A DNA stretch of 52,875 nt from a virus. Its lineage: Duplodnaviria > Caudoviricetes. The notes below the pieces were generated by a model. It did no database searches, was not told where the DNA came from, and saw only the letters and a list, made by a program, of their open reading frames with translations. Location: IMG/VR virus record IMGVR_UViG_3300025093_000027, positions 1-52,875 of that record; one strand, 5' to 3'. Positions 3 to 23,882 of the stretch are shown here, piece after piece (position 1 is the stretch's first letter; each line of letters opens with the position of its first letter). The translations under genes were made by a program, and so were the position numbers.

Positions 3-3000
3 GCTGATGTTGGCAAAAATCCAGCGGTTAGTGAAGCATTAGCTAGACAAGGTGGTGGTAAAAAAGGTAAAAGTAGAGCTACAGGAAGAGGTTTTGGCTC
101 TTTAACATTTGCTAGTGGTGGAGAAGTACCAGTTAGAATCTCTAATGGTGAGATGGTTGTTACTGATCCTAAAGAAGTTGCGGCTAATAGGGGTAAACTA
201 CAATCTATTAATAAGCTTGCAACTGGAGGTTTTGCTTCTGGAACTATTGCAAGAGGACCGGGAACTGGAACATCTGATAGTATCCTTACTACTTTACCAG
301 AAGGTGCATTTGTTGTCAATGCTGCTTCCACTAAGAAGTACTTAGGATTGAGAAGAGGCGGTGGAGTTGGAAGAATAAAATCTTTCAGAGATGGTGGAAC
401 AAATATTAGTGATTTGACAGCGGCAAGAAGAGGTGCTGCTGCTGATTTAAGATTTGCACAATCTACGGGCGACTCAGCAGCTATTGTTAAAGCAGAACAG
501 CAAATTAAAAATTTAGATAAGGCACTTCAAAAGGCTAATAAGAATTTAAATCAAAATGCCATAGCTAATCAAAAAGCTTCTGTTGCATCCACAATTTCTG
601 GTAAAGCTGATTTAAACGAGGCTAAAGCAAGTAAAACTGCTGCAACAGCAAATCTACAAGCTGCCCAAGCTGCTGCCAAACAAGTTGCTGCTGGTAACAT
701 AGGTCCATTTGGTGCCAATGCTAGAACTGTTAATACATTAGCCCCTACTACTCAAACTCGGGGTCCAAATCTTGGTAATCCTCAAAATGTTCTTCCTCCC
801 GGCACTGATAACTCTAAGCTTGCCAATTTTGGGCAAAATCTATTAGGCGTGACATTCGCACTGCAAACCTTAACAAGTAGTGTATTTGAAGCGGATTCTG
901 CCGCTGCTGAATTGGTTCAATCTTTATCTAATACTATTTTAACTTTTAGTTTGTTAGGGTCTATTATTCCGCTAGGAAAAATTGGAGAGTTGATTGGTTT
1001 TCAAAGCAAATTTGCCGGTGTTCTTCCACAATTTGCTGGTGCTAGTGTTGGTAGTTTTGCTGCTGGTGGATTAGGGGTTGCAGGTGCTGGTCTCGCTGGT
1101 GGTTTAGTTGGTAGGCAGGTTGGTGATCAAGTTGCTAATCTTGTCATTGGTAAACAGCAAGAAGTTGCTGGATTGAAAGGAGACTCATCTCTTGCTGATG
1201 CACAAGAAAGAGAAGCATTTGGTTTCGGAGGTGCTGTATTGGGTGGTGCTGTTGCCGGTGCTGCGATTGGAAGTTTTGTGCCCGTTATTGGTACTGCCCT
1301 TGGTGCTGCTATAGGTGCGGGTTCTGGAGCTATTGTTGCTGCTGTTACGACACCATTAGACATAGCGGCTAAACAGGCAGCATTTGAGACAGCATCTAAA
1401 CTTAAAGCTTCTGGAACAGCTTTGTCTAAATCTTTAGCAGATATTCAAAAGGGCTTCACAACATTTAAATTTGATAAAGTAACTACAGCACTTGATAGGC
1501 AAACTACTAATGTGTTAGGCTCCTTGAATACTTTTGCAGATGGTATTCGTGGAGAAAGAGGGTTCTGGAAAAGAGCATTTACTAATAGTGCTACATTAGC
1601 CGGTGAAGACTTTACTAAAGCTTTTGAGACTGCTGGTAAGCTTCTCAGTGAGGACGCTGCTAAATTTGAAGAACAATATCAAAAAGCTCTTGAAAGATTT
1701 GTGAAGACCTTAAATCCAGATGTCTTAAAAGACACTGATAATTTTTCAAAAGCCTTACAAAAAGCTGCTGATAGCGGTAATTCGTTTGCTAGAGATATTA
1801 TAGAAGCTGGAGAAGCAGTTGTAAAATCAAGATTAGTAGCAGGATCTCAAACAGATGTGTTACGAGAAAGTATTTTATCTCAAATCAATGAAGGTGGTCC
1901 TACGGGATTAGATTCAAGAGTAATTAATGGATTAATTACAGGAACTCAGGCATTAATAGCATTTGCTTCTGCTGAAGCACAAAGAACTGGTGGTCAAATA
2001 GCAGATGTTGAAATAGATGCGGCACAATTAAGGCGTATTTTCGAGGCAAGAGGTGTTACTGCAACTACTTTAGGGATCAGTGAGGAGGAATTCGCTAATC
2101 TCTTAGACGCATCAATAGCTGCCTACAACGTACAAATTGAAACTCAGCAACAATATATAAAAGAACAACAAAAAGCAGTTTTAACACAACAGAATCTAAA
2201 TACTATTATAAGTGATGTATCTAGAGAGTTAAAAAGTTTTGTCTCAGAACTTCAACAAATCACTATAGGGCTTAATTTTGCATTAGATCGTACCAGTACA
2301 ACATTGGCTGAATTTGAATCAAACGTAAGTAATGTATTTAGTGGTTCTGGTGTTGCGAATCTTGGACAAATTACAAATCCATTTTCCGTCGATAGTGATC
2401 AAGGTCAAGCTAGTCAAGAGAACTTCTTTAGAAGAATAGAAACTCTGGGTGTGGATAGTACACAACTTAGACAATTTCAACAGCTTGCCGCACAGGGTCC
2501 ACAAATTATTAAAGATACTATCAGTGACTTATCTGCTCGCGGTTTAACCGCTGACGAGCTTATTTTCAAACTTCAACAAGCTTTTCAAGCACAGGGACTG
2601 AGACTGCCTCCGGGTATAGAGAGAGCTTTATTAGAAGGTGTTTCTAGACAAGGAGTAGAAGAGGGTGGAGTTATTCCAGCAGATGTACTAGAGAAATTAT
2701 TTGCATCTGGAGAACTTCAAAATGCCTTTGGAGAAATTTTTCAGCAAGCAGCAGCTACAGCAGATAATTTTGTAGAGGCATATAATAGAGCTATTAAAAT
2801 TACTGAACAAAGAACTAAGATAGAAGCTCAACTTTTACAAGAGCAAGTTAAATTTACTCAAGCAATCACTGAATCTATTATCGCTCAAGAAAAAAGAACT
2901 AAGCAAATTTTAGCTGGCAATCTTGGTACTGGAGTTGGAGATGGCATTAGTGCTGCTGAAAGAAATGTGAGACTCAGAGCAGAAGCACAGGCAGGTAGTG

Positions 3001-7046: not shown

Positions 7047-7049
7047 TAA

Positions 7050-8444
7050 ATGGCTGGTAGCATTTTAGTAACATATGGCAGTTTTACTTTTTCTGGTATA
7101 AATCAGCCTAATCCCGGTGTTTCTATTTCCAGAAGAGGAGAAAGAAGTCCCGGTAATTATGATACGTTATTTACTCCTTTAGAGGTTACTCTAGAAGGTA
7201 ACATTATCACTAGTGGTTTTCAACCAGTTGTTAGTGGCATTCGTGCTATTGAAAATGCTTTTTCGCCAGAGCTTGGTTGCCAAACTTTTAAAATTCAATG
7301 TGATAGTAATACTCCACTTATTGATAGCTCTGGTGTTGTTACCAATATTAGTTTTCAGCCTAGAAATGATGGTGATTTATTTGCACAAAATGCTGCTTAT
7401 AACATTACCCTAGAAATACCTTCTTTATCTGGTGATGCTCCTATTGCAAGTGGTATTACTGCCATCTCAGAAGAATGGTCTATTCAACACTTAGATGAAA
7501 AGGCTGGTGGAACTGCTTTTGGTGGTGCATTGATGGATACTGCTTTTACAGTTTCTCATAATGTTTCTTTACAGGTTGATGGCTGTGCTACTAATGGTTT
7601 ATCAACCGCAGAAACTTATTTAAATACATTGTATGGTTCATCAACTCCATCTGATGCAGATGTTGCTAACATTTTTGACATCTCTTCTGTTAGTTATTAT
7701 AACCATTTTAGAATTGTCAATAAAAATGTTCAAGAGGGTTCAATCTCTATGAATGAATCTTGGGTTGCATCTACTGGTGCTGCCCTTGAAGACTTTGAAG
7801 TTACAAGAGAAAAGAATTTAGATTCAGATCAAACTACTGTTACTGCTAATGGAACAATCCAAGGATTGGCAAGTATCGGTTATCCTGCCGCAACTGCATC
7901 AACAAGTAAAATGGAAAATGCCATTACACATTGGACAGGTGTTGTTTCTGGCAATTTATACTCTAGAGCAAATGCACTTTATGATGGAGATTATACTTTA
8001 AATCCAACAGGGTTTGCTAGTAGTCTTGGATACAATGGTGGTGCTGGAACTGTAAGTTATAACTTTGTTTATAATGATAGACCAGCAAACTGTGTTGCTT
8101 CTGCTAAGAGCGAGATTATAAATATTAATGAAACAAATCCCAATGATGTATTTGCATCTCTTACAGTACTTGGAAGATTAGCAGGTCCATTATTCCAAGA
8201 GGTAGGAACTAGTGGGGCTAGAACAAGAGAGATTTCTATTGAAGCCATTTTGCCTAGAAGCGGTGCATGTGATTTTGCTGATTTTACAGCACCTTCAGAC
8301 TATAATAGTTTAGTAAATACTTATGAGGCAGGATTGATTGCTGCTTATAGTCAAGTGTTTGTTAATAATGATACAAAAACTTGGAGTCCAAAGGATGGAA
8401 GATTCACATGGACGAAGGGTTGGACAGTAGGTAACTGTTCATAA
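7050..8444 (+). CDS. Putative tail structural protein (distal-tail/hub-like position), 464 aa
   Basis: Directly follows the tape-measure gene. Ser/Thr/Gly/Asn-rich, beta-prone composition typical of virion proteins. Function inferred from position only. Confidence 0.6.
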   Translation: MAGSILVTYGSFTFSGINQPNPGVSISRRGERSPGNYDTLFTPLEVTLEGNIITSGFQPVVSGIRAIENAFSPELGCQTFKIQCDSNTPLIDSSGVVTNISFQPRNDGDLFAQNAAYNITLEIPSLSGDAPIASGITAISEEWSIQHLDEKAGGTAFGGALMDTAFTVSHNVSLQVDGCATNGLSTAETYLNTLYGSSTPSDADVANIFDISSVSYYNHFRIVNKNVQEGSISMNESWVASTGAALEDFEVTREKNLDSDQTTVTANGTIQGLASIGYPAATASTSKMENAITHWTGVVSGNLYSRANALYDGDYTLNPTGFASSLGYNGGAGTVSYNFVYNDRPANCVASAKSEIININETNPNDVFASLTVLGRLAGPLFQEVGTSGARTREISIEAILPRSGACDFADFTAPSDYNSLVNTYEAGLIAAYSQVFVNNDTKTWSPKDGRFTWTKGWTVGNCS

Positions 8445-8458
8445 AATAGGAGATAAGA

Positions 8459-11400
8459 ATGCCACCTAAGAATAGCTGCACTCCACAATCTGTATTCGGG
8501 GGTTATACTCAAACATTGTTTTTGGGTATGTCAGTCCTTGATTTCAGTGCTACTGCTGGTTGGAATGAACAGGCATCTACAGTTACAATTAAGTTAGTCA
8601 AAGATGAATGTGCTGGTCCCAGAGATTATTTTGACGATAATTTTAATTGGCAAACTTCTGTAAACTTTCCTGCTGGTGATCCCGGCTTCAATAATGCACC
8701 TATTGGTTCTGCTGCATTTTTTAAAGTAGAAGACTTTGAGTTCGCTGGTATCATTCAGTCTTTTAACATAACAGAAGATCCCGGTGGATTTCCTATCCTG
8801 ATTGTCAATCTTATTAGCCCAAACATTTTGTTAGATGGTGCTCAAGTCATTACCGATGAATATCAAGGTAGTGTTTTGAGTATGCCTAATGTTTTTAATG
8901 TTTATGGATGGTTAGAATCTAGAACTAATAATTGTCCCCAGATTGGGGGATTTGGTGCTCCTGCCGGTGGATTTGGAAATGCCAGAAGAAACGAACGTGG
9001 TATTCCATGGTATTTTGCTAAAGGTGCTTTACAGGTTTTACTTGGTGGTGCCGAAACTAGTGATTATAGTTGGCATGGAGGAATCACCTATAAACAAGGT
9101 TTAACTGCTGGTAAATATGGTAGCATTAGAAGTGAAGGCTATGTAGTTGACATTACTGATTTACCAACTACAACAGACATCTATTATAGATTAACAAATG
9201 GAAACTATACCCTATCTGAGCTTATCTCAGAGATATGTAAAGATGGTGGTTATGAGTACTATGTAGATTTAGTTCCTTGTAAAGGTGGTGTAACTCCACC
9301 TATTACTAATGTTATTAAAATCAGGACTGTATCTAGAAGGTCACAACCTGCACTGGGAGAAATCTCTACTTTTATTACAGATCAAAATACTGGTCCTGCT
9401 GGTAAGATTATTACACAAGATTCAATAGGTGAAGAGCTTAGAAATGATTCTCCAAACTCTGCATTTATTGTTGGTGCTAAAAAGAAACAAACATACGAGC
9501 AAACAAGTGCTAGTTTTATAACTCCTTTCTGGGGCTTCAATGATAGTGGTGGATTTAATACTGCTTCATTTACTGCTGGTCAATGGCAGATTACTGTAGA
9601 TGTTAGAGCACTTAACTTATCATTAAATACAACTACTGGTAGTAATACAATTACATTTTCAGAGAGTGCATTGCTTGCAGCTATGGGCTATTCTCAAGAT
9701 GCATTCTTATCTTGGCTACAGGCAAATGAACCATCCAGTAATTTGAGTACATATTTCTTTACTAACTTGTCTCTTAATGCACCATTTGACATAAAACTTG
9801 GTGCTGCTCTTGGCAAGCCTGCTATTGATGCAGCAAGACCTGCTGGTCAAGGTAGTAGAGATCCACAAACTACACAAGCTAAAGATGCACAAACATTTTT
9901 TAGTTGGTTAAAATCTTATGGTGATCAGGTATACGGTAAGCAATGGCTTGTTGCAGTGCCATGGGTATGTTATACAAATGATCCTGAAACAAATCAGTTA
10001 TTATTAAGTGATGAGCCATCTACTGATGGTGCTTGGCCTAATACTCTTACTGCTGTATTGGGAATGACTTTCCCATCTAGTTATACAGATTTCTTTGCTG
10101 ATGAGCAAGGTAAACTGCAAACTATTATGAGATTCAATGGTGCTATTAATACTTCTTTATTATCAGATGAAGACTATGTAACTGATGGCACAAATGTTTG
10201 GGTTAAAGGTGAAATTAATGAAAAGTGGGCATTGTTACCATCAACTTTCTTTGGTGCTCAATACGCTGCTGCTTTAGTTACTATTCCTAACAGAGTTACT
10301 ATCTCTCCGACACTTGCTCTGTCTCAAACTATGTATGGTGGTGCTAATTTTAGAGTACCTAGTGTTGGTGCAGATTTTAATCCAAATGCAAATCCGGGTG
10401 CTGTTGCTGGTCCTGCTGCTCTTCCATTTTTTGCTCCAGTATCCGCTGCACTTCCAGTAAAAAGTAATACAACTACTTACGGTCCTTGGTTGGCTACGGC
10501 ATCAAGCCTTATTGTTAATGGTCATCCTTTTGGTGGTAAGGTTTATTATGAGCAAGATGACGGTCTAGCACCATGGGAATATGGTGGATTTACATTTATG
10601 AATCTTGGTGCAGCAGCTAAGATTGATAACTCTATTACAAATGAAACAGTATCTGAAAGAGGTTCTGTAACTTTAGCTGGTTATCCAGAAAAAACTCTAG
10701 GTTTAGCTATTACAGATAGTCCCTCTTTAGTTGCTAGTAGAGTACTACAAAATGGTCTTTATCAAGGTTCAAATTATTACTATGTAAATACAGGTGGAGT
10801 TTCCACCAAAGCTGCACAGATTACTAACATTCAAGTAACTGTTAATGGTTCTGCTATTACAACTCAGTATCAGATTTCAAGCTTCACTCCAGTATTTGGT
10901 AGATTTACTAAAGATAATGCGGAGAGAGTTAAACAGATTGGTCAGCAAAGACTTGAGTTTGGTAGAAAAGTCCGAGCAGCATTAGCAAGAGAGGCTAGAC
11001 TTGCTGCTGGTCAAAGGAAAGCTGCATTACAACAATTTGCAAGTATGCTTAATCAGTCAGATTCAGATTCTGGTGCTTCAGCATATTTAACTGGTAAAAG
11101 ACTTACAAATAGAAGTAAAAATAATTATGTAGTAAGTAATACCTTACAAGGCACATCTAACACTGATGACTATGATAATAGTGCTAATGTTAGTATGGAT
11201 GGAATGCAATCACCAGTTCAAAAAAGAGCCGGTTCATCAAACTTATCTAAAGAGGTTGCAGATCCTAATAATCCAACTACATCAGATCAACCTAACTTTA
11301 GCGAAGCTGCACCTCCTCCCTTAAATGAGTACACTCCTATTAGGGTTAGCACTGATTATTTAGATTTTCTAGCTACTCCTGCTAGTGATGTTGCACAAAG

Positions 11401-13417
11401 ATCTAATGCTCCTTATTCGGGACATAATGTTATTGATGTAGCAAGAGGCACCTCAAGTGATTTTGATACTTATACAGGAACAACATCTCTACCCGCCATT
11501 GATGATGCTGGTGGAGATCCTTATGCTCAAACTGATTATAGATACATAGCACATAGAGGTCCATTAGTAGTCCATGGATGGGGTTATGACTTAGCTGGAA
11601 AACCAGTTCCAAACTCTGGTGGTGCAGACGTTGAAGATAGCTGGCAAGATAATTATGACGGGCTTGCCGATGGGTTTAAAGAGGGTTGGTTGCAAAATGA
11701 TAAATTGTGGCCTACTGCTCCAGTAGATTTAAGATATGATAGAAGAAGGGGTGTATGGACTACTCCACCTAGCTTTAGAATGTATAAGGTGACTGGTAGC
11801 CCCATATCTGCTGGTGCTAGCGGTCCAGTTGTAGTTTTAAATGCTAATGATGTGTATGATGCTAATGGTGATGTGATCAACACTAAAACTGTTAATGTTA
11901 CTAACATCACTGATAGTACGACACCATCTGGTCAGGATTACATGGCTTATTATGATAATGTTAATAATCAATATTGGCCTATCTTCCCCGGAAGTGGAGG
12001 AGGTGGTGGTGGATTAAGTGGTATCTGTATTGAGTTTGATGCACAGTATGAATGTGGTAATGTATCTAGTATTTCAGATATTCAACAAATTAAAATTGGT
12101 AATGGTATAGCTGCAATCGGTTATGAATCTGCTGCTTGTAATGGAACTAATCAATCTGGTGTGCAATTATCAACAATACATAAAGTATCAGCCCTAAATC
12201 TTTGTCTTCCTAGTGATACTACTAGTGCAGCGGCTACTCCACTAGATAGAAAAACTTTTGGAAACTTAGAATTTGGTAATGGTCTTGTTGTTTTAGAATA
12301 CAATGGAGAAGATGATGGTTCTCCTTCTGCTCCTGACGGTGCTGGTGCCGGTGGTAGTTTATGTGAGTATAAAATAGAAGCACCTTTATTGGTTACTGGT
12401 AGAAGAACTAGTGCATCACAGAGTGATCCAGCGTTTGGTCAGGGTTGCGTGCCTGCATCAGCATCAGATCAACCTAATTCTTTTTCTAAAGCAAAGACTT
12501 TTCACTTAGAGTTTGCTGGTGCTATAGCATTGTATAAAAAGCCTGTTGGAACCGCAGGCAATCTTGGTCCTAATTTAGATTTATGTGAAACTTTTGTAGC
12601 CAAAGTTTGCACTCCTACTATGTTTTATAAGAGTTGTGGTTTATCTTCAACAGTACTCGCTGCATCGACATATACTTCTGGACTAGCGGTTCATCAATAT
12701 GATGGTTTATTTTTTGAAGGTTTTCGTGCAGAGCCATTTCAGTCTTTAGCAGGTAGAAGCTTACTGATTCAGCATAGTCATCGAATTGAAGGCGGTTGTT
12801 CAACACATCCAGATGGCATTGGTCCTGTAGATCCGTCTATAAATCAAACTAATGGACGAAGGTTTCAAGACATACGGCTTAGTGAGGCATTTTTTGTAAA
12901 AGAGAGTTCATCACAAGGCTATCCTCCTCAACCGGGAAATTTTGGAACTTGCTTATTAGATCTACACATATGTGGAAAAACTGCCGATGTTGAGCTAGTA
13001 TGTGATGTCTCATGTAATAATAATGTTTTGACCAAGTTTACTCAGACTTTGAAATTTGAAGAAGGTGTTCTTCAAGACCCCGGAGAATGTGCTGGCAATA
13101 ATGTAACTCAAACAACCAGTATGAGTATGACTTATGCTAATAACGTAGACGCTGTTAGCAACTATACTTCTCCTGATAACATGTCAAGTGTAATTAGAGT
13201 TAATGCTTCTACATCTTCGTATACAGTAACATTGCCAGATGCTAGTACTATGATTGCCTATACAAATACAGTTATGAAAGTAGATAATACAGTCAATACA
13301 GTTACAGTTCAAGGTGCTGGTGGTGCAACTATTAATGGTGCTGCAAGTCAGACACTGACAAATCAGTATGAATCAATAACCGTTCATACAGATGGCACTA
13401 ACTGGTTTATAAACTAA
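8459..13417 (+). CDS. Large tail/baseplate/adsorption protein, 1652 aa, with Cys-rich distal region and C-terminal fibre-type beta domain
   Basis: AGGAG RBS at ~8448. GSGGGGG linker at ~11990. C-terminal YTVTLPDA...KVDNTVNTVTVQG...TING..SQTLTNQYESITVHTDGTNWFI resembles a common phage fibre-tip module. Confidence 0.7.
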   Translation: MPPKNSCTPQSVFGGYTQTLFLGMSVLDFSATAGWNEQASTVTIKLVKDECAGPRDYFDDNFNWQTSVNFPAGDPGFNNAPIGSAAFFKVEDFEFAGIIQSFNITEDPGGFPILIVNLISPNILLDGAQVITDEYQGSVLSMPNVFNVYGWLESRTNNCPQIGGFGAPAGGFGNARRNERGIPWYFAKGALQVLLGGAETSDYSWHGGITYKQGLTAGKYGSIRSEGYVVDITDLPTTTDIYYRLTNGNYTLSELISEICKDGGYEYYVDLVPCKGGVTPPITNVIKIRTVSRRSQPALGEISTFITDQNTGPAGKIITQDSIGEELRNDSPNSAFIVGAKKKQTYEQTSASFITPFWGFNDSGGFNTASFTAGQWQITVDVRALNLSLNTTTGSNTITFSESALLAAMGYSQDAFLSWLQANEPSSNLSTYFFTNLSLNAPFDIKLGAALGKPAIDAARPAGQGSRDPQTTQAKDAQTFFSWLKSYGDQVYGKQWLVAVPWVCYTNDPETNQLLLSDEPSTDGAWPNTLTAVLGMTFPSSYTDFFADEQGKLQTIMRFNGAINTSLLSDEDYVTDGTNVWVKGEINEKWALLPSTFFGAQYAAALVTIPNRVTISPTLALSQTMYGGANFRVPSVGADFNPNANPGAVAGPAALPFFAPVSAALPVKSNTTTYGPWLATASSLIVNGHPFGGKVYYEQDDGLAPWEYGGFTFMNLGAAAKIDNSITNETVSERGSVTLAGYPEKTLGLAITDSPSLVASRVLQNGLYQGSNYYYVNTGGVSTKAAQITNIQVTVNGSAITTQYQISSFTPVFGRFTKDNAERVKQIGQQRLEFGRKVRAALAREARLAAGQRKAALQQFASMLNQSDSDSGASAYLTGKRLTNRSKNNYVVSNTLQGTSNTDDYDNSANVSMDGMQSPVQKRAGSSNLSKEVADPNNPTTSDQPNFSEAAPPPLNEYTPIRVSTDYLDFLATPASDVAQRSNAPYSGHNVIDVARGTSSDFDTYTGTTSLPAIDDAGGDPYAQTDYRYIAHRGPLVVHGWGYDLAGKPVPNSGGADVEDSWQDNYDGLADGFKEGWLQNDKLWPTAPVDLRYDRRRGVWTTPPSFRMYKVTGSPISAGASGPVVVLNANDVYDANGDVINTKTVNVTNITDSTTPSGQDYMAYYDNVNNQYWPIFPGSGGGGGGLSGICIEFDAQYECGNVSSISDIQQIKIGNGIAAIGYESAACNGTNQSGVQLSTIHKVSALNLCLPSDTTSAAATPLDRKTFGNLEFGNGLVVLEYNGEDDGSPSAPDGAGAGGSLCEYKIEAPLLVTGRRTSASQSDPAFGQGCVPASASDQPNSFSKAKTFHLEFAGAIALYKKPVGTAGNLGPNLDLCETFVAKVCTPTMFYKSCGLSSTVLAASTYTSGLAVHQYDGLFFEGFRAEPFQSLAGRSLLIQHSHRIEGGCSTHPDGIGPVDPSINQTNGRRFQDIRLSEAFFVKESSSQGYPPQPGNFGTCLLDLHICGKTADVELVCDVSCNNNVLTKFTQTLKFEEGVLQDPGECAGNNVTQTTSMSMTYANNVDAVSNYTSPDNMSSVIRVNASTSSYTVTLPDASTMIAYTNTVMKVDNTVNTVTVQGAGGATINGAASQTLTNQYESITVHTDGTNWFIN

Positions 13418-14166
13418 CATCCAGCAGCATTTCCTACTGCTGTTTTAGCTGTTGGGCAAGCTGTTTGATCAAATGTAATCTTGATAACCATCTCATCCCC
13501 TTGGGCACAGCAGTTACATCCACCGGGAAAACTTGGATTTTGTCTAGGAGAATCTACTAAAAAGTAAATCTCTAATGTGCCTTTGTTTGGGCATGAACTA
13601 CCTGTATCTTCTTCGCATGTAGTTGGCCCATATTCAGTGCCGCAATAATCAAATGTTCCAACTTGATTAATGTAGAAAAAAGTATCGTATCTTTCTTTAT
13701 TATCAGAATTGCTATCACAAGCTGAATTACTGTATTGCATTTGCAAGACCCACCTAGCACCATCACAGTTATTTAATGTGCTTTCGGCTGTGGTGCCGCC
13801 CGGATCTGCGGCACACCTTAATATAAGCCTTAGATTAACATTAGCACACTGTCCAGTGCTACCATTAATTCTAGGACTATTTGGGCTTGCCCACTCTAAA
13901 GCGTCTATACAATAATCTGAATCAGGTCCAAAAGATCCGGGGGACATGCATCCAGTTTTTGCATCAAACTCTCCAGCACTACTGCATGGGGTGGATGCTA
14001 AACATTGTTTATCAATAATCTCATATTTTAGACTATGTTCAGCGGACCAATAGATTTTGTCAGTGGGATAAAGCCAGTCACAACAACAAGTTTGTTCTCC
14101 ACATCCACAACACTCACAATATTCTGTTGTCGCATTTGGAATTTCATGCCCATCAACAATACCCAT
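13414..14166 (-). CDS. Cys-rich protein (23 Cys in 250 aa), possible tail-tip accessory
   Basis: TAATG coupling to the upstream gene. CECCGC, CCC and CNCC clusters. Its stop overlaps the stop of the convergent tail gene. Confidence 0.75.
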   Translation of the reverse strand: MGIVDGHEIPNATTEYCECCGCGEQTCCCDWLYPTDKIYWSAEHSLKYEIIDKQCLASTPCSSAGEFDAKTGCMSPGSFGPDSDYCIDALEWASPNSPRINGSTGQCANVNLRLILRCAADPGGTTAESTLNNCDGARWVLQMQYSNSACDSNSDNKERYDTFFYINQVGTFDYCGTEYGPTTCEEDTGSSCPNKGTLEIYFLVDSPRQNPSFPGGCNCCAQGDEMVIKITFDQTACPTAKTAVGNAAGC

Positions 14167-14402
14167 TATTCACCCTTTTGCTCATCTGGATTTGGTTGTG
14201 ATGCTTGAGCTATTTCATTTAATAACTCCACACAAGACCTATTATGTTCCATCGCTTCAACGTGCTTGATGCCTTCCTCTACAAGATCACCATGCTCACC
14301 AACACCAACAGCATTAGTAAGATAAATATTCAAATTTGCCCTAGCTCTAAGAAACTTAGCATGGAAGTGTGCTTGTAGTGTGTTCAATAGATCTTCATTC
14401 AT
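14166..14402 (-). CDS. Conserved small phage hypothetical protein (ANLNIYLTNAVGVGEH motif)
   Basis: The motif resembles a small protein common in aquatic phages. ATGA and TAATG overlaps on its two sides. Confidence 0.75.
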   Translation of the reverse strand: MNEDLLNTLQAHFHAKFLRARANLNIYLTNAVGVGEHGDLVEEGIKHVEAMEHNRSCVELLNEIAQASQPNPDEQKGE

Positions 14403-14638
14403 TCCTTATTCTCCTTGTTAGAACTTAAAACCCCATTAAGAAACTTCTGTCTCTTTTTACATCCACATTCATCAATACCTAGCCATTTCTGTACTGTATC
14501 AGGTGTGATACCAAAAAGACCAAATACTTTAGAAACCTTATCGCCAATACCTTGGCTTTCTACAGAATCTGTAGCAGAGACACCTTCCTGTTCTAGTGCC
14601 TCCACTACTTCATCTAGTTTTTCCTCTTCATTAGACAT
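14399..14638 (-). CDS. Small phage protein with GIGD...ECGCKKRQKFLN motif (start revised to 14638)
   Basis: ATG at 14638 (MSNEEEK) overlaps the stop of the preceding ORF. GxGD...CGCxxRxxxLN is a recurring small phage-protein pattern. Confidence 0.75.
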   Translation of the reverse strand: MSNEEEKLDEVVEALEQEGVSATDSVESQGIGDKVSKVFGLFGITPDTVQKWLGIDECGCKKRQKFLNGVLSSNKENKE

Positions 14639-14912
14639 GCGATACCTTGCAATGATGTTTAAACTGTTTTTGCTTAATCCTTCTTGACTTATCATCAAGA
14701 GGTAAGTATTCTCCCTTATTCCACATTTTAAATCTATCTGATTTATCGTCTACTTGAGAGATACTCATACAACGACATGGAAACTCAACTTGAACTGTTT
14801 CATCAGTGTCAACATGGACAACCTGCCCAAAAGCAAACTGATGTCAGTCAAAGGCTGGGAATCCGGGTAGTGGTTCTCTAGTTCTATGAACCCAATCGCC
14901 AAGCTTTACCAT
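14631..14912 (-). CDS. 93-codon SH3/KOW-like protein with one in-frame UGA at codon 23 (candidate selenoprotein/readthrough, or recent nonsense allele)
   Basis: MVKLGDWVHRTREPLPGFPAFD*HQFAFGQVVHVDTDETVQVEFPCRCMSISQVDDKSDRFKMWNKGEYLPLDDKSRRIKQKQFKHHCKVSHV. The ATG lies 1 nt after the upstream TAA with a GGGAG RBS. The terminal TAA overlaps the next start (ATGTCTAA). UGA at 14844-14846. Confidence 0.7.
14801..14843 (-). promoter_or_regulatory. SECIS-like stem-loop immediately 3' of the in-frame UGA
   Basis: CAUCAGU (+1..+7) pairs with ACUGAUG (+37..+43). Upper stem UGGGCA/UGUCCA closes a GGU apical loop starting at +21. Confidence 0.5.
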
Positions 14913-14913
14913 A

Positions 14914-15294
14914 TTAACTCTCCCGTTGAAAATTAAACCATCCATTATGAGGAAGATAACCGTAATGCTTTTCAGCATAAGCCTGCTCATTAGCACGCTG
15001 TTCTTGTTGCTTCTCAGAAAGCTGATCCCATCTAATCTTAGGATAGATAACACCACCTTTTTTAGCCCTACCAAAGATAACTTTAGCACGACATTCCTGA
15101 CAAACAACTTCTAACCAATCGTTTTCATCTTTGTCTAGTCTGCACACATACTTTGTATGCTCGCTACCACATTTGCCACACTTATTATGGTCAAAAACTT
15201 CTTGGACTCTAGCGATCTGTTTAAAGATTTCATACTCGCTATCGCCCTCTACTTCAAACGATACCTTACCGTCTGGACCTACAACTGCTTTCAT
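14914..15294 (-). CDS. Hypothetical zinc-ribbon protein
   Basis: CGKC...CQEC. AGGAG RBS. Confidence 0.75.
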   Translation of the reverse strand: MKAVVGPDGKVSFEVEGDSEYEIFKQIARVQEVFDHNKCGKCGSEHTKYVCRLDKDENDWLEVVCQECRAKVIFGRAKKGGVIYPKIRWDQLSEKQQEQRANEQAYAEKHYGYLPHNGWFNFQRES

Positions 15295-15306: not shown

Positions 15307-16035
15307 TTAGAAAGAACTTTGCCAACTCGCATCATAACCTAAAAGTTCTTCTGGGATTGACTTTTCCCTTTGATAAGAAGTGATCTTATCCATCAGAACA
15401 GATGCTTCCAAGTTAGTCAATTGCTTTAAAGTCTTTGCATTATTATATACACTTTTGGTAACTTTTTCGACATTTAAATCATGTTTTCTGCAAACTGCAT
15501 TAATAGCCATAATTTGCTGATCATTAATGTGATCTTGTGCCGTAAGGACTTCTTCTTCACCAACCTGTGTCTGTGCTTCTTCAGCAGTAACAACACGAAG
15601 TTTCAATGCACGACGAAGAGCCTTTCCTTCTGCTCTGGTATCAGCGGTAGCAACAACGTGACGATTAAATGGATGAGGAACACCACGATAATCCACATCA
15701 ATACAAGCATCGCACTCTGCTAAAGTCCCTGTTTTGTATTTGCGAATCAATAATGTATGTCTTACAGTACATCTCAAGCCATTACCATCATGCTCTGTAT
15801 CAATGACATCGCTTTTAGATTTTACAATCTCACCATAGAACCTTTCGGTAAGTCTTCTTAAACCATCAGTGGTTGGATTACCTTGAACAAGTTCATTTTC
15901 GTATAGATTGTCAATCAGGAAATCATACCAACCTTCATCAGTTGGTTCTGGTGCTGCCATAGCTTCTTCAGAAATACCATACTCTTCTGCTTCACTAATC
16001 TCATCAATCATGCCTACAAAATCATCATTCTTCAT
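15307..16035 (-). CDS. Rad52/Sak-like ssDNA-annealing protein
   Basis: VATADTRAEGKALRRAL helix, typical of Rad52/Erf-like annealases, preceded by a beta-rich core and followed by a small C-terminal helical domain. Confidence 0.6.
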   Translation of the reverse strand: MKNDDFVGMIDEISEAEEYGISEEAMAAPEPTDEGWYDFLIDNLYENELVQGNPTTDGLRRLTERFYGEIVKSKSDVIDTEHDGNGLRCTVRHTLLIRKYKTGTLAECDACIDVDYRGVPHPFNRHVVATADTRAEGKALRRALKLRVVTAEEAQTQVGEEEVLTAQDHINDQQIMAINAVCRKHDLNVEKVTKSVYNNAKTLKQLTNLEASVLMDKITSYQREKSIPEELLGYDASWQSSF

Positions 16036-16790
16036 AGTTCAAAGTACCTTTCATTTTCAGGTGGATAACTTTTCTCAATCCTATTTAACAAGTCTAATAA
16101 ACTATCTAGGGTATCTCTCATAACCTTTTGTGATAGTCTTTTAGTCTGTTTTACTCTAACCATAACCATTCCTTGTCGTAATACTAGACCATCCTTTTGC
16201 ATATCAGATAGTTGATTACGAGCGAGATTCTCATGACCCCATACTGGCTCAAAATGTGAAGGTCCATCAACTTCAATAACAGTTTTTAAATCTGGAACAT
16301 ACAAGTCGATTTCCAACTCTGAGTTTTGCAACCAATGGGTCTTATGAAATTCTACCCTGAAACCCTCACTAATCAAGGCTTCAAGTAAAAATTTTTCCAT
16401 CTTTGAACCAGTTTTAGCAGCATGACGAATAGCATCGCCTGCCTTTTGTAGAAACACAGATTTCTCTTCTAGTGTTTTTTTATTCCATGACTCCTTACCA
16501 ATCAAAGACCTTTGTAATCTTTCCTCATTAGATAGATTATCCCATACCTTTGCTTGTGACTCGCTAATCTTGAGTTTAGTTTTCTCAGACCTTTTCTTAC
16601 CTTTAGTAGGATGTGCTGCTATACCTTGCTTTAATGCATTCTTTTGTGCTGCACTTTTATCCTTCATCTCGCACCCATTCTTTATAAGGATACGACGAAT
16701 CTTATTAGGATAAGTATCAAACTCTTTAGCTATTTCGTATGTACTTTTATTCTGATTCTTGTACATATCTATAATCTGATTTTCATTCAT
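16032..16790 (-). CDS. Free-standing homing-type endonuclease (HTH, NUMOD3-like basic segment, Vsr/DUF559-like nuclease)
   Basis: N-terminal STYEIAKEF HTH. HPTKGKKRSEKTKLKISES NUMOD3-like motif. EIDLYVP...IEVDGPSH nuclease motif. Confidence 0.7.
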   Translation of the reverse strand: MNENQIIDMYKNQNKSTYEIAKEFDTYPNKIRRILIKNGCEMKDKSAAQKNALKQGIAAHPTKGKKRSEKTKLKISESQAKVWDNLSNEERLQRSLIGKESWNKKTLEEKSVFLQKAGDAIRHAAKTGSKMEKFLLEALISEGFRVEFHKTHWLQNSELEIDLYVPDLKTVIEVDGPSHFEPVWGHENLARNQLSDMQKDGLVLRQGMVMVRVKQTKRLSQKVMRDTLDSLLDLLNRIEKSYPPENERYFEL

Positions 16791-21585: not shown

Positions 21586-23208
21586 CTAACTTCTTAGGGG
21601 TAAGACATTTTTTACTAAAAATCCCTTCTTTTCTTTTTGTCTCATTCCCCTAAACAACATCACCGCTTTTTCCTGTAATTTATTTTTATGCTTCTCATAA
21701 TCTTCAGAGAACATAACTACATTATCCAAATTGCAAGTAGAGTCACTAAGAGTAATAAACGCCATCTTCTTACCCTTAGATTCTCCTCGTTTAATAGTCC
21801 ATTCCCTAATACTTTTGAGTTCTGCGGCAATAGCGATACCATTAGTAGATTGGAATCCATCTAGGAACTCTTTACAAGTGCAGTTCGCGTGACTTGTATC
21901 ATATTCATCTACTTTAGAACATGTAAGAGCGACCCCTAAGTATTCCTGTTCATTTTTAGCTCTCCATGCAGGACTATCTTCTAAATTATACCCCGGATTT
22001 TCTAAACTATCTATCAGTCCATCAATAATCTCTACCCTGTCTCTTTTAAAGATAGGACGTTTTTTATCTGACCAGTCATTAGTAAGCAACATTTTATTTA
22101 GTGTTTCAAGTAATGTTTCCTCCATGTTCTTTTGGACCCATTCTATTTCTCTCTTGCTCAACTCTTTGTACTGTTCATAGATGTGCTTCATTTCTAATCT
22201 ATTAATGTAAAAGCAATCACAAGCACCAGACAGAATAAGTGCAAGCATAGAATCCTTTTTGATACAATGACCATACATCATCAAGCATTGATCAAAGTTC
22301 ATGTCATCTACATTTTTATTACCATTCTCTTTGATGCAACTAATAAGTTTATCATAAACAGAACTACCAACTTTCTTTACATTTGTCATGCCGAAGGTTG
22401 GACAATCCCCTACAAGTTGAAAGTCTTTTTGTAACTTCTTAATGTTTGGAGGTTGAACATGGATGTTCATTAGGCGAGCATTGTTCACCAGTTCATTAAT
22501 CTCTTCAAATGTATCTGGCTTGCCAATAGCATGTTTCAAATAAGAAGTAAAGAACTCATGAGGGAAATGTGCTTTAGCATAAGCAGTAAGATAACCATTA
22601 GTAGCATAAGCATAAGAGTGAGATTTGTTGAACGAGTATCTTTGTGATGCCTCAATCCACGAGAAGATTTCTGATGCTTCTTCTTCATTCACGATACCAT
22701 GCTCAATGGCTTTACTGATAAACTCGCCTTTGATTTTACCCATCAACTCTACATTCTTTTTACCAATAGCTTTACGAAGAACATCTGCTTCCTGCAAAGA
22801 GAAACCAGCAAGTTCTTTAGCAATTGCCATCGCTTGCTCTTGATAAACAAGGATACCTTGAGTAGGGGCAAGAATAGGTTCAAGGGCGGGATGCAGATAC
22901 TCCACATCCTCACGCCCATGCTTCCTATCAATATAATGGTTGGTAAGATTTTTACCTTTGATAAAACTCTCTGTACAACCGGGACGAATAATAGCAATCA
23001 AGTCAGATAGTTCATCAATGCTACGAGGTTGTACTTTCTCTGCATTAGACCCTTGGATTTCCAACTGGAACACACCTTTAGTATTACCCTCACAAATCAA
23101 GTCCCAAGTAGCAGAGCAGTCTTTTGGCAACTTCTCTACATCAGGATCAAAGATAATACGACCATTACTATCAGTTTCAAATGTACATCCACAGGGAAAA
23201 GTTCTCAT
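21586..23208 (-). CDS. dnaE: DNA polymerase III alpha, C-terminal half (fingers, HhH, OB fold)
   Basis: TKGVFQLE, IIRPG, ILVYQEQ, LRKAIGKK, YSFNKSHS, KAHFPHEF, and KMAFITLSD (OB fold). Confidence 0.95.
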   Translation of the reverse strand: MRTFPCGCTFETDSNGRIIFDPDVEKLPKDCSATWDLICEGNTKGVFQLEIQGSNAEKVQPRSIDELSDLIAIIRPGCTESFIKGKNLTNHYIDRKHGREDVEYLHPALEPILAPTQGILVYQEQAMAIAKELAGFSLQEADVLRKAIGKKNVELMGKIKGEFISKAIEHGIVNEEEASEIFSWIEASQRYSFNKSHSYAYATNGYLTAYAKAHFPHEFFTSYLKHAIGKPDTFEEINELVNNARLMNIHVQPPNIKKLQKDFQLVGDCPTFGMTNVKKVGSSVYDKLISCIKENGNKNVDDMNFDQCLMMYGHCIKKDSMLALILSGACDCFYINRLEMKHIYEQYKELSKREIEWVQKNMEETLLETLNKMLLTNDWSDKKRPIFKRDRVEIIDGLIDSLENPGYNLEDSPAWRAKNEQEYLGVALTCSKVDEYDTSHANCTCKEFLDGFQSTNGIAIAAELKSIREWTIKRGESKGKKMAFITLSDSTCNLDNVVMFSEDYEKHKNKLQEKAVMLFRGMRQKEKKGFLVKNVLPLRS

Positions 23209-23882
23209 GCAAAACTTCCTTTAAACTTATCAACACTAACTTGACGACGAGCAAACTTCAAAAACCTAACCAAGATTTTAGCAGTATCAACAACATCAGA
23301 AATAGCACTATGGGCTTGACCATGAGATTGTAATCCAAAGAACTCTTTCAATGTATCCATCTTATAGTTTTCTGGTTCTGGCATATTCTCAAACCAGTAG
23401 GTAATGTAATGAAGTAAATCCATGTTGCCCATCTTGGCGAATGGATAATCCAACTTATGCTTATCACACATGTTACGAATAATGATGTCATCAAATCCAT
23501 CTACATTATAACCACTGTATGCTGGTTCTGTAAAGTAGATTCTTCTCATTGGATCTTTCTCAATGTGATACTTCTGCAAATAAGAACAGAAGTTTTTCAT
23601 AGCAACCTTTTGTGATTTACCTTTCTTCCAAGTACTTACAATGTCTTCAGAAGAACATCCTCTTGTTGAAGCGTGCCAATCAATAGTCTTCTGCACACCT
23701 GTTGTAAAATACTCATCCTTATCAATACCCGGAGGTTTAACTGTAACCTCAAAGGTATCATCCATTTTAATTTCCAAAGTTCTAGGATTAACTGGGACCG
23801 CTGCAATCTCTACTGGATTAGCAGTAGTAGGGTCAGGTCCATCAGTTTCCAAATCATAAACAATAATCCAACGATGATTCAT
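23205..23882 (-). CDS. DEDDh 3'-5' exonuclease (DnaQ/epsilon-like)
   Basis: YDLETDG (ExoI), GYNVDGFD (ExoII), AHSAISD (ExoIII). Confidence 0.92.
   Translation of the reverse strand: MNHRWIIVYDLETDGPDPTTANPVEIAAVPVNPRTLEIKMDDTFEVTVKPPGIDKDEYFTTGVQKTIDWHASTRGCSSEDIVSTWKKGKSQKVAMKNFCSYLQKYHIEKDPMRRIYFTEPAYSGYNVDGFDDIIIRNMCDKHKLDYPFAKMGNMDLLHYITYWFENMPEPENYKMDTLKEFFGLQSHGQAHSAISDVVDTAKILVRFLKFARRQVSVDKFKGSFA

Follow-up and report, generated by a model that had tools for sequence, protein, structure and literature searches.

A small phage gene carries an in-frame TGA codon that is most likely read as selenocysteine (Sec), with the help of a conserved RNA hairpin that resembles bacterial SECIS elements. 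The gene lies on the minus strand of the window, the whole stretch of 52,875 nucleotides that was analyzed (virus record IMGVR_UViG_3300025093_000027). In related phages, the hairpin matches the Sec insertion hairpin in selD of marine Pirellulales, a likely host lineage, and no phage-specific selenoprotein family turned up in the literature searched. That search did not extend to supplements S8 and S9 of PMC4807772 or Dataset S2 of PMC2398784, which might list relevant Planctomycete or GOS selenoproteins. A sequence-only reading had proposed that a 93-codon frame interrupted by one UGA and followed by a SECIS-like hairpin encodes a phage selenoprotein, or else is subject to programmed readthrough. 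The observation is confirmed. The selenocysteine interpretation is supported, in that each of the checks proposed with it that could be made on sequence favored selenocysteine, although three details of the original picture are not upheld: the basal stem of the hairpin is not part of the conserved element, the CxC motif is not invariant, and infection of a Sec-competent host by the window's own phage, rather than by its relatives, is inferred and not shown.

Features of the candidate selenoprotein locus (positions in the window)
Coordinates	Strand	Feature	Observations
14631..14912	-	Complete coding frame of the candidate selenoprotein, 93 codons plus TAA (14633-14631), with Sec at codon 23	ATG at 14912-14910, 1 nt after the upstream TAA (14916-14914)
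14918..14924	-	Shine-Dalgarno-like GGGAGAG	5 nt upstream of the ATG
14844..14846	-	In-frame UGA, the proposed Sec codon (codon 23)	Context GAC UGA CA; the preceding GAC is invariant in 49 of 49 distinct sequences
14815..14829	-	Conserved SECIS-like hairpin, 6-bp stem UGGGCA/UGUCCA and loop GGU	Stem pairs 14829-14824 with 14820-14815; loop 14823-14821; stem starts 14 nt after the UGA, and 20 nt separate the UGA from the loop
14801..14843	-	Extent of the 43-nt hairpin of the sequence-only reading	Basal stem pairs 14843-14837 with 14807-14801; specific to the window and its closest relatives
14649..14651	-	Codon of Cys88, the only Cys invariant in the family	Possible partner of Sec23 (inference)
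14769..14777	-	CRC motif (Cys46, Cys48)	Common in the family but not invariant
14914..15294	-	Upstream neighbor, 126-aa protein with CxxC...CxxC	Only sub-threshold Pfam hits
14399..14638	-	Downstream neighbor, 79 aa counted from ATG 14638	Overlaps the end of the frame by 8 nt; itself ends in TGA

The TGA is invariant among homologs. Of 72 loci that cover codon 23, 70 have TGA there, and the two others (L080 and L081) are unrelated bacterial ORFs that match only the first residues. Eight of the 76 metagenome loci do not reach the codon and were left out. No TGC/TGT, TGG, TAA or TAG occurs at this column in the 70 true homologs, which come from many assemblies, although protein identity falls to about 39%. 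Sequencing error had been named in advance as a result that would overturn the proposal, but contigs of two independent DNA runs cover the TGA and no differing letter is listed there. A contig from an RNA library also spans 14650-14888 without a difference, although DNA carry-over cannot be excluded and transcription is therefore not shown. These data make it very improbable that the TGA is a true stop, whether it ends a 22-codon micro-ORF upstream of a separate or decaying gene or reflects an assembly error or nonsense allele. Standard table-11 gene calls do stop here, and public sets hold stumps of 53-63 aa that start after the TGA. However, no conserved start codon follows the TGA (the first in-frame ATG in the window is codon 49), and codons 24-48 are conserved at the protein level.

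Homologs with Trp, Arg or variable residues and no conserved hairpin had likewise been named as evidence against Sec. Fifteen database proteins of the close family (motif FDW) do show Trp at this position. We read these entries as table-4 gene calls on contigs of 1419 nt or less, although only 1 of the 15, an exact table-4 reading, could be matched letter for letter to a TGA-bearing locus. Alternation with Cys, which had been put forward as support for Sec, is seen only once: a distant singleton homolog from a 1031-nt contig (P0018) has Cys at the aligned column. Scans of viral contigs for P0018 and two other distant homologs (P0014 and P0027) found nothing, so their codons were not seen.

RNAfold reproduces the 43-nt structure in the window (-19.3 kcal/mol), but on its own this stability is not unusual (z = -1.35; 19 of 200 shuffled sequences fold as well). 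The comparison with relatives is more informative. RNAalifold predicts only the 6-bp upper stem, which is kept in 49 of 49 distinct sequences at one fixed distance from the TGA and without any indel. In this stem 99.3% of 294 cells pair, 3 of 6 pairs have compensatory changes on both sides, and 0 of 500 shuffles reach this. Alternative versions with the 3' partner slid by 1-3 columns pair in 7-61% of cells. One compensatory change comes at the cost of an amino acid change, from Val to Ala in two of the homologous loci (L048 and L064). In contrast, only 45.5% of cells pair in the 7-bp basal stem across the 49 sequences. A covariance model built only from the phage elements scores the window site at 56.1 bits, which is the only site in the window with E below 0.5. 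It finds no second element in the window, none in the phage loci apart from one weak hit in locus L022 (16.4 bits, E = 0.16), and none beside DUF1501 genes in 7 bacterial loci. No Rfam family matches, with only two chance hits above E = 1.

The element satisfies the published constraints for bacterial SECIS elements (PMC13188914), a comparison with the bSECIS model having been suggested beforehand. It lies inside a coding sequence immediately 3' of an in-frame UGA. The loop is 3 nt (5 nt in locus L075) and the stem is 6 bp in 49 of 49 distinct sequences, compared with permitted ranges of 3-9 nt and 4-16 bp. The model calls for G in one of the first two loop positions, usually followed by G or U; the loop here is GGU, and CAGGT is invariant in 49 of 49. 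The spacing of 20 nt between UGA and loop fits in every sequence. The free energy limit of -7.5 kcal/mol is reached by the window's 48-nt region (-15.0) and by 41 of 46 distinct regions, while 5 fall short (range -19.2 to -5.9); the 15-nt core alone gives only -5.1 to -7.0. Binding of SelB to the element was not assayed; identity of the hairpin in related phages with the selD SECIS of candidate hosts supports it indirectly. The claimed resemblance to Escherichia coli fdhF is real, since the K-12 sequence reads UGA CAC and has a GCAGGU apex, and the window element shares UGA CA and this apex. However, the apex is 2 nt further from the UGA than in fdhF (+21..26 against +19..24), there is no bulged U in the stem, and the loop has 3 nt rather than 4. 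The phage-derived model does not find the fdhF SECIS and gives only a 2.9-bit hit on its UGACAC.

Both sides of the UGA appear to encode one polypeptide. The pN/pS ratio is 0.16-0.26 on both sides in the same frame. Synonymous diversity in codons 24-34 is halved or lower compared with the flanks (pS of 0.21 against 0.45-0.46, 0.29 against 0.66-0.80, and 0.09 against 0.41-0.45), which suggests an additional constraint at the RNA level. In an alignment of 53 sequences, 16 positions besides the Sec column are invariant, including Cys88, which is still invariant when distant members are added. The CRC motif, which the sequence-only reading had pointed out downstream of the UGA, is replaced by SRL in several members (L008, L011, L018, L025-L028 and P0003/P0005). 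The AF2 model of the read-through protein is a single, probably SH3-like domain (pLDDT 87.9, above 90 across residues 1-50) with strands at residues 7-10, 28-34, 40-43, 61-64 and 69-71 and a helix at 74-87; residues 7-10, upstream of the UGA, are needed as a strand of the barrel. The best structural matches are small barrels of the PWWP, ribosomal KOW-type, SH3 and DUF4314 classes, the last known from phages, but all are weak (best E-values of 0.0017 in BFVD and 0.022 in PDB, TM 0.45-0.63). With no Pfam hit for the protein, these matches do not settle whether it belongs among the SH3-like or KOW-like barrels. None of the matched proteins is described as a selenoprotein in its listed title.

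Recoding of the TGA is local. As the sequence-only reading stated, UGA is an ordinary stop elsewhere: it ends 18 of 54 tiled ORFs in the window, including a full-length RNR large subunit, and 7 of 54 distinct homolog CDSs, 5 of them just before a terminator-like hairpin and T-run. Some phages do recode stop codons, and the database proteins with Trp would fit such a code, but this stop codon usage already contradicts a genome-wide reassignment of TGA (table 4 or 25, or a suppressor tRNA), which we consider the least likely explanation. ARAGORN finds no tRNA in the window, and the related records yielded only a tRNA-Arg(TCT).

A link to a host comes from related phages. Of 49 distinct phage sequences, 22 carry the 15-mer CGCACAGGTTGTGCG, and the same 15-mer follows the Sec UGA of selD in 5 of the 12 Pirellulales selD genes listed. 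With locus L172 the identity runs over 18 nt in the same reading frame, encoding IAQVVR. The phage-derived covariance model hits exactly this hairpin in 5 of the 7 selD loci given to it (17.4-19.2 bits). The proteins themselves are unrelated, and the loop lies 12 nt closer to the UGA in the phage gene than in selD (+24 against +36). This lineage also supplied a neighboring phage gene: the adjacent DUF1501 gene is 63-86% identical to its 80 best relatives in bacterial genomes, and 77 of those 80 carry Planctomycetota names. The window phage is related to these phages, with DnaE 60-63% identical. Absence of Sec machinery from the host lineage, together with no detected readthrough product, had been specified as a refuting outcome. 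In five candidate host genomes of the related phages, tRNA-Sec scores over the cut-off in 4 of 5 and SelB in 3 of 5; selD was found in all 4 genomes searched, 3 of which have one in-frame TGA, and SelW-like genes carry a TGA in 4 of 4. The SelW-like SECIS has a G-first triloop at +26, close to the +24 of the phage. The same apex and geometry as at the window site occur in the selD and SelW-like SECIS of Pirellulales. Because selA was not searched and the host of the window's phage was not identified, these counts leave open whether that host has the complete selA, selB, selC and selD set. Formate dehydrogenase alpha in 4 host genomes has no in-frame stop and gave no further SECIS example. A degenerate hairpin motif occurs in the 5 host genomes at the control rate, and only the 3 selD sites lie behind an in-frame TGA; a fourth candidate (L195) lies out of frame in another gene.

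The hairpin of the window's own clade differs from the selD hairpin in the lower four pairs. As an exact motif it gave 33 matches in 401 Planctomycetota genomes, compared with 1 for the reversed control, but none of the 20 loci fetched has an in-frame TGA with a credible ORF. This excess looks like a coding sequence effect and gives no host evidence for the clade. Searches of 50,697 phage records by blastn and tblastn found nothing for the locus or the protein, and DnaE finds only relatives of 34% identity or less there, so no cultured relative and no host came from this route. A scan of 185,579 bacterial species genomes with the family alignment found no relative, although one of its two patterns held Cys at the Sec column and could not match a TGA.

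The selD match also bears on two alternatives. Programmed UGA read-through without selenium, in which a near-cognate tRNA such as tRNA-Trp reads a leaky UGA-C with help from the hairpin, would yield a 22-residue peptide plus a minor full-length protein at a set ratio, as in the Qbeta A1 protein. UGA followed by C or U is kept in all 49 distinct sequences, UGA-C is a weak terminator in E. coli, public gene sets show Trp at this position, and purifying selection on both sides of the UGA would also be explained. However, we consider this unlikely. It gives no reason for the hairpin to equal the selD SECIS of a candidate host over 18 nt in frame or for a G-first triloop at SECIS distance, and a single-residue leak needs no invariant TGA, yet TGG never replaces it in 70 loci. 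The Qbeta A1 gene is likewise a phage gene with an in-frame UGA that must be passed to make the full product. In Qbeta the UGA ends a complete coat protein and is read by tRNA-Trp at a low rate, whereas here it sits inside a single small domain and is followed by a SECIS-type hairpin. A second possibility, which we regard as still less likely, is that the hairpin acts mainly as a SelB decoy or selenium sensor that titrates host SelB or gates translation of this and the overlapping downstream gene on host selenium status, with the protein being secondary. Identity with the host selD SECIS and the tight coupling of the frame to its neighbors would fit, and excess SECIS RNA lowers selenoprotein synthesis in E. 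coli. Against this, purifying selection on the downstream 70 codons and the invariant positions argue that the protein itself matters, and a pure decoy would not need a fixed distance between UGA and hairpin. The decoy reading is compatible with real Sec insertion rather than opposed to it.

We therefore favor, with good but not complete confidence, a phage-specific selenoprotein of 93 residues made with host machinery. The analysis itself demonstrates that the UGA and hairpin are conserved, that both sides of the UGA are translated in one frame, that recoding is local, that the hairpin matches authentic host SECIS elements and that the candidate host genomes have Sec machinery. The remainder is inference: SelB binding, actual Sec insertion (selenium in the protein was not measured, and there is no direct evidence of its incorporation), the host of the window's phage, and the role of the protein. 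In this model, host SelB loaded with GTP and Sec-tRNA(Sec) would bind the hairpin during infection and deliver Sec in competition with release factor 2. The phage appears to supply only the mRNA signal, as no tRNA-Sec and no selD were found in the five phage records searched; these are all incomplete, so this fits host dependence but proves nothing. Pirellulales, a lineage of Planctomycetota, is the probable host of the related phages, and the hairpin was either copied from selD or converged on it. The FD-U-H context is not a known redox motif; the sequence-only reading had cautioned that it is not a classic UxxC redox motif. Our guess is that Sec23 forms a redox-active or metal-binding center with Cys88, although the distance between the two residues was not measured.

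A more far-reaching reading is possible but doubtful. This would be a lineage of large marine and estuarine phages, probably infecting Planctomycetota, with an orphan selenoprotein that exists only in the Sec form (70 of 70 loci, with no Cys version among the phages) and a SECIS that is a copy of the host's selD SECIS. The phage would then both make its own selenoprotein and compete with selD mRNA for SelB, tying phage gene expression to the host's selenium status and perhaps throttling the host's selenium pathway during infection. It would be the first selenoprotein family native to bacteriophages.

Selenocysteine recoding is treated as a cellular trait. The viral cases named in one review are the glutathione peroxidases of molluscum contagiosum virus and fowlpox virus (PMC8310308), which also depend on host Sec machinery and, in fowlpox, have the SECIS in the coding region. 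Those are captured cellular GPx genes with eukaryotic SECIS elements, whereas the family here has a bacterial-type SECIS and no cellular homolog in the genomes searched. tRNA-SeC genes are reported in Basilisk-like Bacillus phages (PMC6145125), which likewise links phages to the Sec system, but that report names no selenoprotein gene, whereas here there is a selenoprotein gene and no tRNA-Sec in the phage records searched. A 2026 review of the prokaryotic selenoproteome does not contain the words phage, virus or viral (PMC13188914), and a survey of marine trace-element proteins states that the families it examined, other than RNR II, plastocyanin and Cu-Zn SOD, lack or have very few viral sequences (PMC9402790). 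A phage-specific family that is always Sec would show that phages can exploit the host SelB system with nothing more than a 15-nt hairpin. It offers a very small natural UGA-plus-SECIS cassette for study, and the match between phage and host SECIS gives a signal for host prediction. Selenoprotein searches that rely on Cys homologs (PMC4807772, PMC2398784) would be expected to miss the gene. It also exposes a blind spot in annotation, since standard gene callers split this gene or call it with table 4.

The window is a linear virus record of 52,875 bases that is estimated to be 35% complete. The frame of interest lies on its minus strand, where a start codon preceded by GGGAGAG follows the TAA of the upstream gene by 1 nt, and it is interrupted only once, by a TGA at codon 23. 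RNAfold reproduces the two-storey hairpin that had been described from the sequence alone, with an energy of -19.3 kcal/mol. For this one sequence such stability is unremarkable (z = -1.35; 19 of 200 shuffles fold as well). The single sequence therefore confirms the description, and the observation made in the sequence-only reading holds, but everything about its significance comes from comparison with relatives. In the window the gene overlaps the next ORF, and a 250-aa, very Cys-rich ORF (with runs such as CECCGCGEQTCCC) that has no Pfam hit lies two genes downstream.

Coordinates of the selenoprotein candidate and of other features in the window and in related records
Location	Strand	Feature
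window 14912-14910	minus	ATG of the candidate gene
window 14846-14844	minus	in-frame TGA, codon 23
window 14633-14631	minus	TAA that ends the frame
window 14823		start of several metagenome contigs, inside the hairpin loop
window 13414-14166	minus	very Cys-rich ORF
window 16032-16790	minus	ORF with borderline NUMOD3 hit
window 21586-25777	minus	DnaE-type DNA polymerase region: polymerase ORFs 23882-25777 and 21586-23208, exonuclease-domain ORF 23205-23882
window 3-13417	plus	two giant ORFs
L001 735-1202		gene upstream of the selenoprotein gene, ending in CGCGSSF
L038 3-3992 (also L004 and L005 downstream of the gene)		DUF1501 paralogues and Cys-rich ORF
L082 1080-1526 and L085 1184-1526 (records G001, G002); L084 1500-1572		tmRNA-like genes in two related phage records, and a tRNA-Arg(TCT) in one of them
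G005:C5, G007:C42, G009:C41 (loci L167-L169, L248-L250)		SelW-like gene and tRNA-Sec on one contig in three Pirellulales genomes

The TGA is invariant in a sizeable family. Scans of viral and metagenome contigs returned 4 and 76 loci, respectively, of which 72 cover codon 23; the other 8 metagenome loci start after it. The aligned column had been named beforehand as the place where the hypothesis could fail, and 70 of the 72 loci have TGA there. The two exceptions (L080 and L081) are long ORFs in contigs of about 1 Mb that resemble the query only over the first dozen residues, and we do not count them as homologues. No locus has TGC/TGT, TGG, TAA or TAG at this column, although identity to the window protein falls to about 39%. 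A check of the TGA against raw reads had also been proposed in advance; contigs from two further DNA runs cover the site, and no difference is listed there. Several metagenome contigs from independent runs begin at exactly the same position inside the hairpin loop, which probably reflects assembly breaks at strain variation rather than biology. The invariance of the TGA excludes a sequencing error or a private nonsense allele.

Both sides of the TGA belong to one protein. Within each of three clades, pN/pS is 0.17-0.20 for codons 2-22 and 0.16-0.26 for codons 35-88 in the same frame, and no conserved start codon follows the TGA (in the window the first in-frame ATG is codon 49). An AlphaFold2 model built on 53 family members (mean pLDDT 87.9, pTM 0.77) is a single small barrel (strands 7-10, 28-34, 40-43, 61-64 and 69-71) followed by a helix at 74-87, and the stretch before the TGA supplies the first strand. 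Structural matches are all weak and of the SH3/KOW/PWWP/DUF4314 kind, and there is no Pfam hit. The invariant residues are M1, W7, R10, T11, P14, F21, D22, residue 23, Q30, V31, V42, F44, M49, W64, E68, Y69 and C88. The CRC motif that the sequence-only reading pointed out downstream is not among them, since it is SRL in several members. We consider it very unlikely that the TGA is a true stop or an artefact.

The recoding is local. TGA terminates 18 of 54 tiled ORFs in the window, among them a full-length RNR large subunit, and it is the terminator of 7 of 54 distinct homologue CDSs. Five of these seven, in the close relatives L006, L014, L020, L022 and L023, are followed at once by a G+C-rich hairpin and a T-run that looks like an intrinsic terminator. 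The window has no tRNA gene. Two related phage records carry tmRNA-like genes according to ARAGORN, with tag peptides AEPSFAIAA and AEKEILALAA, although no tmRNA model was applied to them, and one of these records also carries a tRNA-Arg(TCT). Genome-wide reassignment of TGA is the least likely of the readings that we considered.

The conserved RNA element is smaller than the hairpin first described. In 49 distinct 66-nt sequences there is no indel between the TGA and the hairpin, and RNAalifold predicts only a 6-bp stem (+18..+23 with +27..+32) closed by the loop GGU at +24..+26. Covariation of the hairpin was another test set out at the start, and 99.3% of 294 cells pair, with three of the 6 pairs changing on both sides (U-A/C-G, C-G/G-C, and A-U/G-U/G-C). 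None of 500 shuffles reaches the observed pairing or covariation, and registers in which the 3' partner is slid by 1-3 columns pair in only 7-61% of cells. In two of the homologous loci (L048 and L064) the pair is kept by a change that turns Val into Ala. Synonymous diversity in codons 24-34 is half or less of that in the flanks, which shows selection on the RNA itself. The basal stem proposed in the sequence-only reading pairs in only 45.5% of cells, so it is not part of the conserved element.

This element can be compared with the four constraints on bacterial SECIS elements given in the Fig. 2 legend of a 2026 review (PMC13188914). The loop should be 3-9 nt with a stem of 4-16 bp, and here they are 3 nt and 6 bp. 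A G is expected in the first two loop positions, and the phage loop is GGU. The distance from the UGA to the loop should be 16-37 nt, and it is 20 nt. The MFE should be at or below -7.5 kcal/mol, a value reached by 41 of 46 distinct 48-nt regions, with -15.0 kcal/mol for the window. E. coli K-12 fdhF, read from the genome record, has UGA CAC and the apex GCAGGU located 2 nt nearer the UGA, so the resemblance to fdhF that had been suggested from the sequence alone is real. However, a covariance model made from the phage elements is too sequence-specific to find fdhF, and no Rfam family matches the element.

A link to a host comes from the more distant clade of the family, in which the gene sits among DUF1501 genes (Pfam E = 1e-83 to 1e-104). 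Phages of this clade carry two to three DUF1501 paralogues with twin-arginine-like leaders plus a 65-aa Cys-rich ORF, which looks like a host-derived auxiliary gene cluster of unknown role. One paralogue has 315 relatives in bacterial genomes. Of the 80 best, which are 63-86% identical, 77 bear Planctomycetota names, mostly Pirellulaceae, Rhodopirellula and Mariniblastus. The presence of Sec machinery in the predicted host had likewise been specified as a test, and we examined five such genomes. A tRNA-Sec scores over the Rfam cut-off in 4 of 5 and SelB over its cut-off in 3 of 5. A selD gene is present in 4 of 4 genomes searched, with one in-frame TGA in 3 of those 4, and a SelW-like gene with a TGA occurs in 4 of 4. 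In three Pirellulales genomes (G005, G007 and G009) the SelW-like selenoprotein gene lies within about 10 kb of tRNA-Sec on the same contig; SelB shares that contig in G005 and G009, whereas no SelB scored over the cut-off in G007. Published work also reports full Sec machinery and selenoproteins in Rhodopirellula-type planctomycetes (PMC4807772).

In one of the selD loci (L172), the hairpin after the Sec codon reads exactly like the phage hairpin of the DUF1501-bearing clade. The identity covers 18 nt in the same reading frame and encodes IAQVVR. Across the order, selD was found in 25 of 61 genomes, and 14 of 30 matched places have one TGA. The exact 15-mer follows the Sec codon in 5 of the 12 selD genes listed, and four more selD genes have a different stem with the same CAGGU apex. 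This same 15-mer is carried by 22 of the 49 distinct phage sequences, and the phage-derived model hits precisely this hairpin in 5 of the 7 selD loci given to it, at 17.4-19.2 bits. The loop is at +36 in selD, at +26 in the SelW-like genes (a triloop starting with G) and at +24 in the phage gene. These bacteria therefore accept a range of spacings that nearly includes that of the phage.

The phage of the window belongs to the same broad lineage. Its DnaE is 60-63% identical to those of the DUF1501-bearing records, and a 1652-aa protein is 33-35% identical to giant ORFs there. This protein is the second of two giant ORFs, the first encoding more than 2297 aa, that have almost no family hits. 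The hairpin in the window keeps the same apex (CAGGUUG), loop and position, but its lower stem differs (UGGGCA/UGUCCA), and we found no host SECIS with that exact stem. The motif has 33 matches in 401 Planctomycetota genomes, and these are not behind in-frame TGAs in the 20 loci that we inspected. The host of the window's clade is therefore inferred rather than shown. No tRNA-Sec or selD was found in the five phage records, which are 4-52% complete.

Public protein sets hold the family in two forms: full-length proteins with W at the column, all from contigs of 1419 nt or less, and stumps of 53-63 aa from longer contigs. One of the W proteins (P0037) is letter for letter the table-4 reading of a homologous locus (L007) that has TGA. 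The other 14 of the 15 close-family proteins with the motif FDW could not be matched to DNA, and we read the W as a gene-calling artefact, although this remains an inference. A profile search of 1.84 billion representatives gave 20 hits, of which one is a distant singleton (P0018, 29% identity) with Cys at the aligned column. No relative was found in 185,579 bacterial and archaeal species genomes.

The best-supported reading, which we hold with good confidence, is a phage-encoded selenoprotein made with host SelB and tRNA-Sec and directed by a minimal SECIS that matches the selD SECIS of the host. The interpretation offered in the sequence-only reading, that the phage may use host machinery to make a selenoprotein of an unfamiliar family, is thus supported. 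Read-through without selenocysteine seems unlikely, and a SECIS decoy or sensor as the main function seems less likely still. The invariance of the TGA, the translation of both sides as one protein and the selection on the RNA rest directly on the comparisons, whereas SelB binding, actual Sec insertion, the host of the window's clade and the role of the protein are inferred. The function of the protein is unknown; it might form a redox or metal centre from Sec23 and the invariant Cys88 on an SH3-like scaffold, but this is a guess.

The mechanism itself is known, and what is new is the setting: a phage, an orphan family that is always Sec, and a SECIS shared with host selD. Our literature searches, which covered listings and passages of papers but no supplements, turned up no phage selenoprotein gene. 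Poxvirus GPx genes are the only viral selenoproteins named in the review text that we read (PMC8310308), and one report describes a tRNA-SeC gene in Bacillus phages (PMC6145125). A marine survey states that the families it examined, other than three metalloprotein families, lack or have very few viral sequences (PMC9402790). The GOS selenoproteome paper does not mention phage, and its figure legend shows the new families aligned with their Cys homologues (PMC2398784).

In one related locus (L001), the gene upstream of the selenoprotein gene ends in a CGCGSSF motif that resembles IscA/HesB-type iron-sulfur assembly proteins, although this gene was not compared with Pfam. In the window, the DnaE-type DNA polymerase is encoded in two ORFs, between which lies a 225-aa ORF with an RNase_T/DnaQ-like exonuclease domain. 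A 252-aa ORF with a borderline NUMOD3 hit and a weak DUF559-like hit is probably a homing endonuclease inside the replication module.
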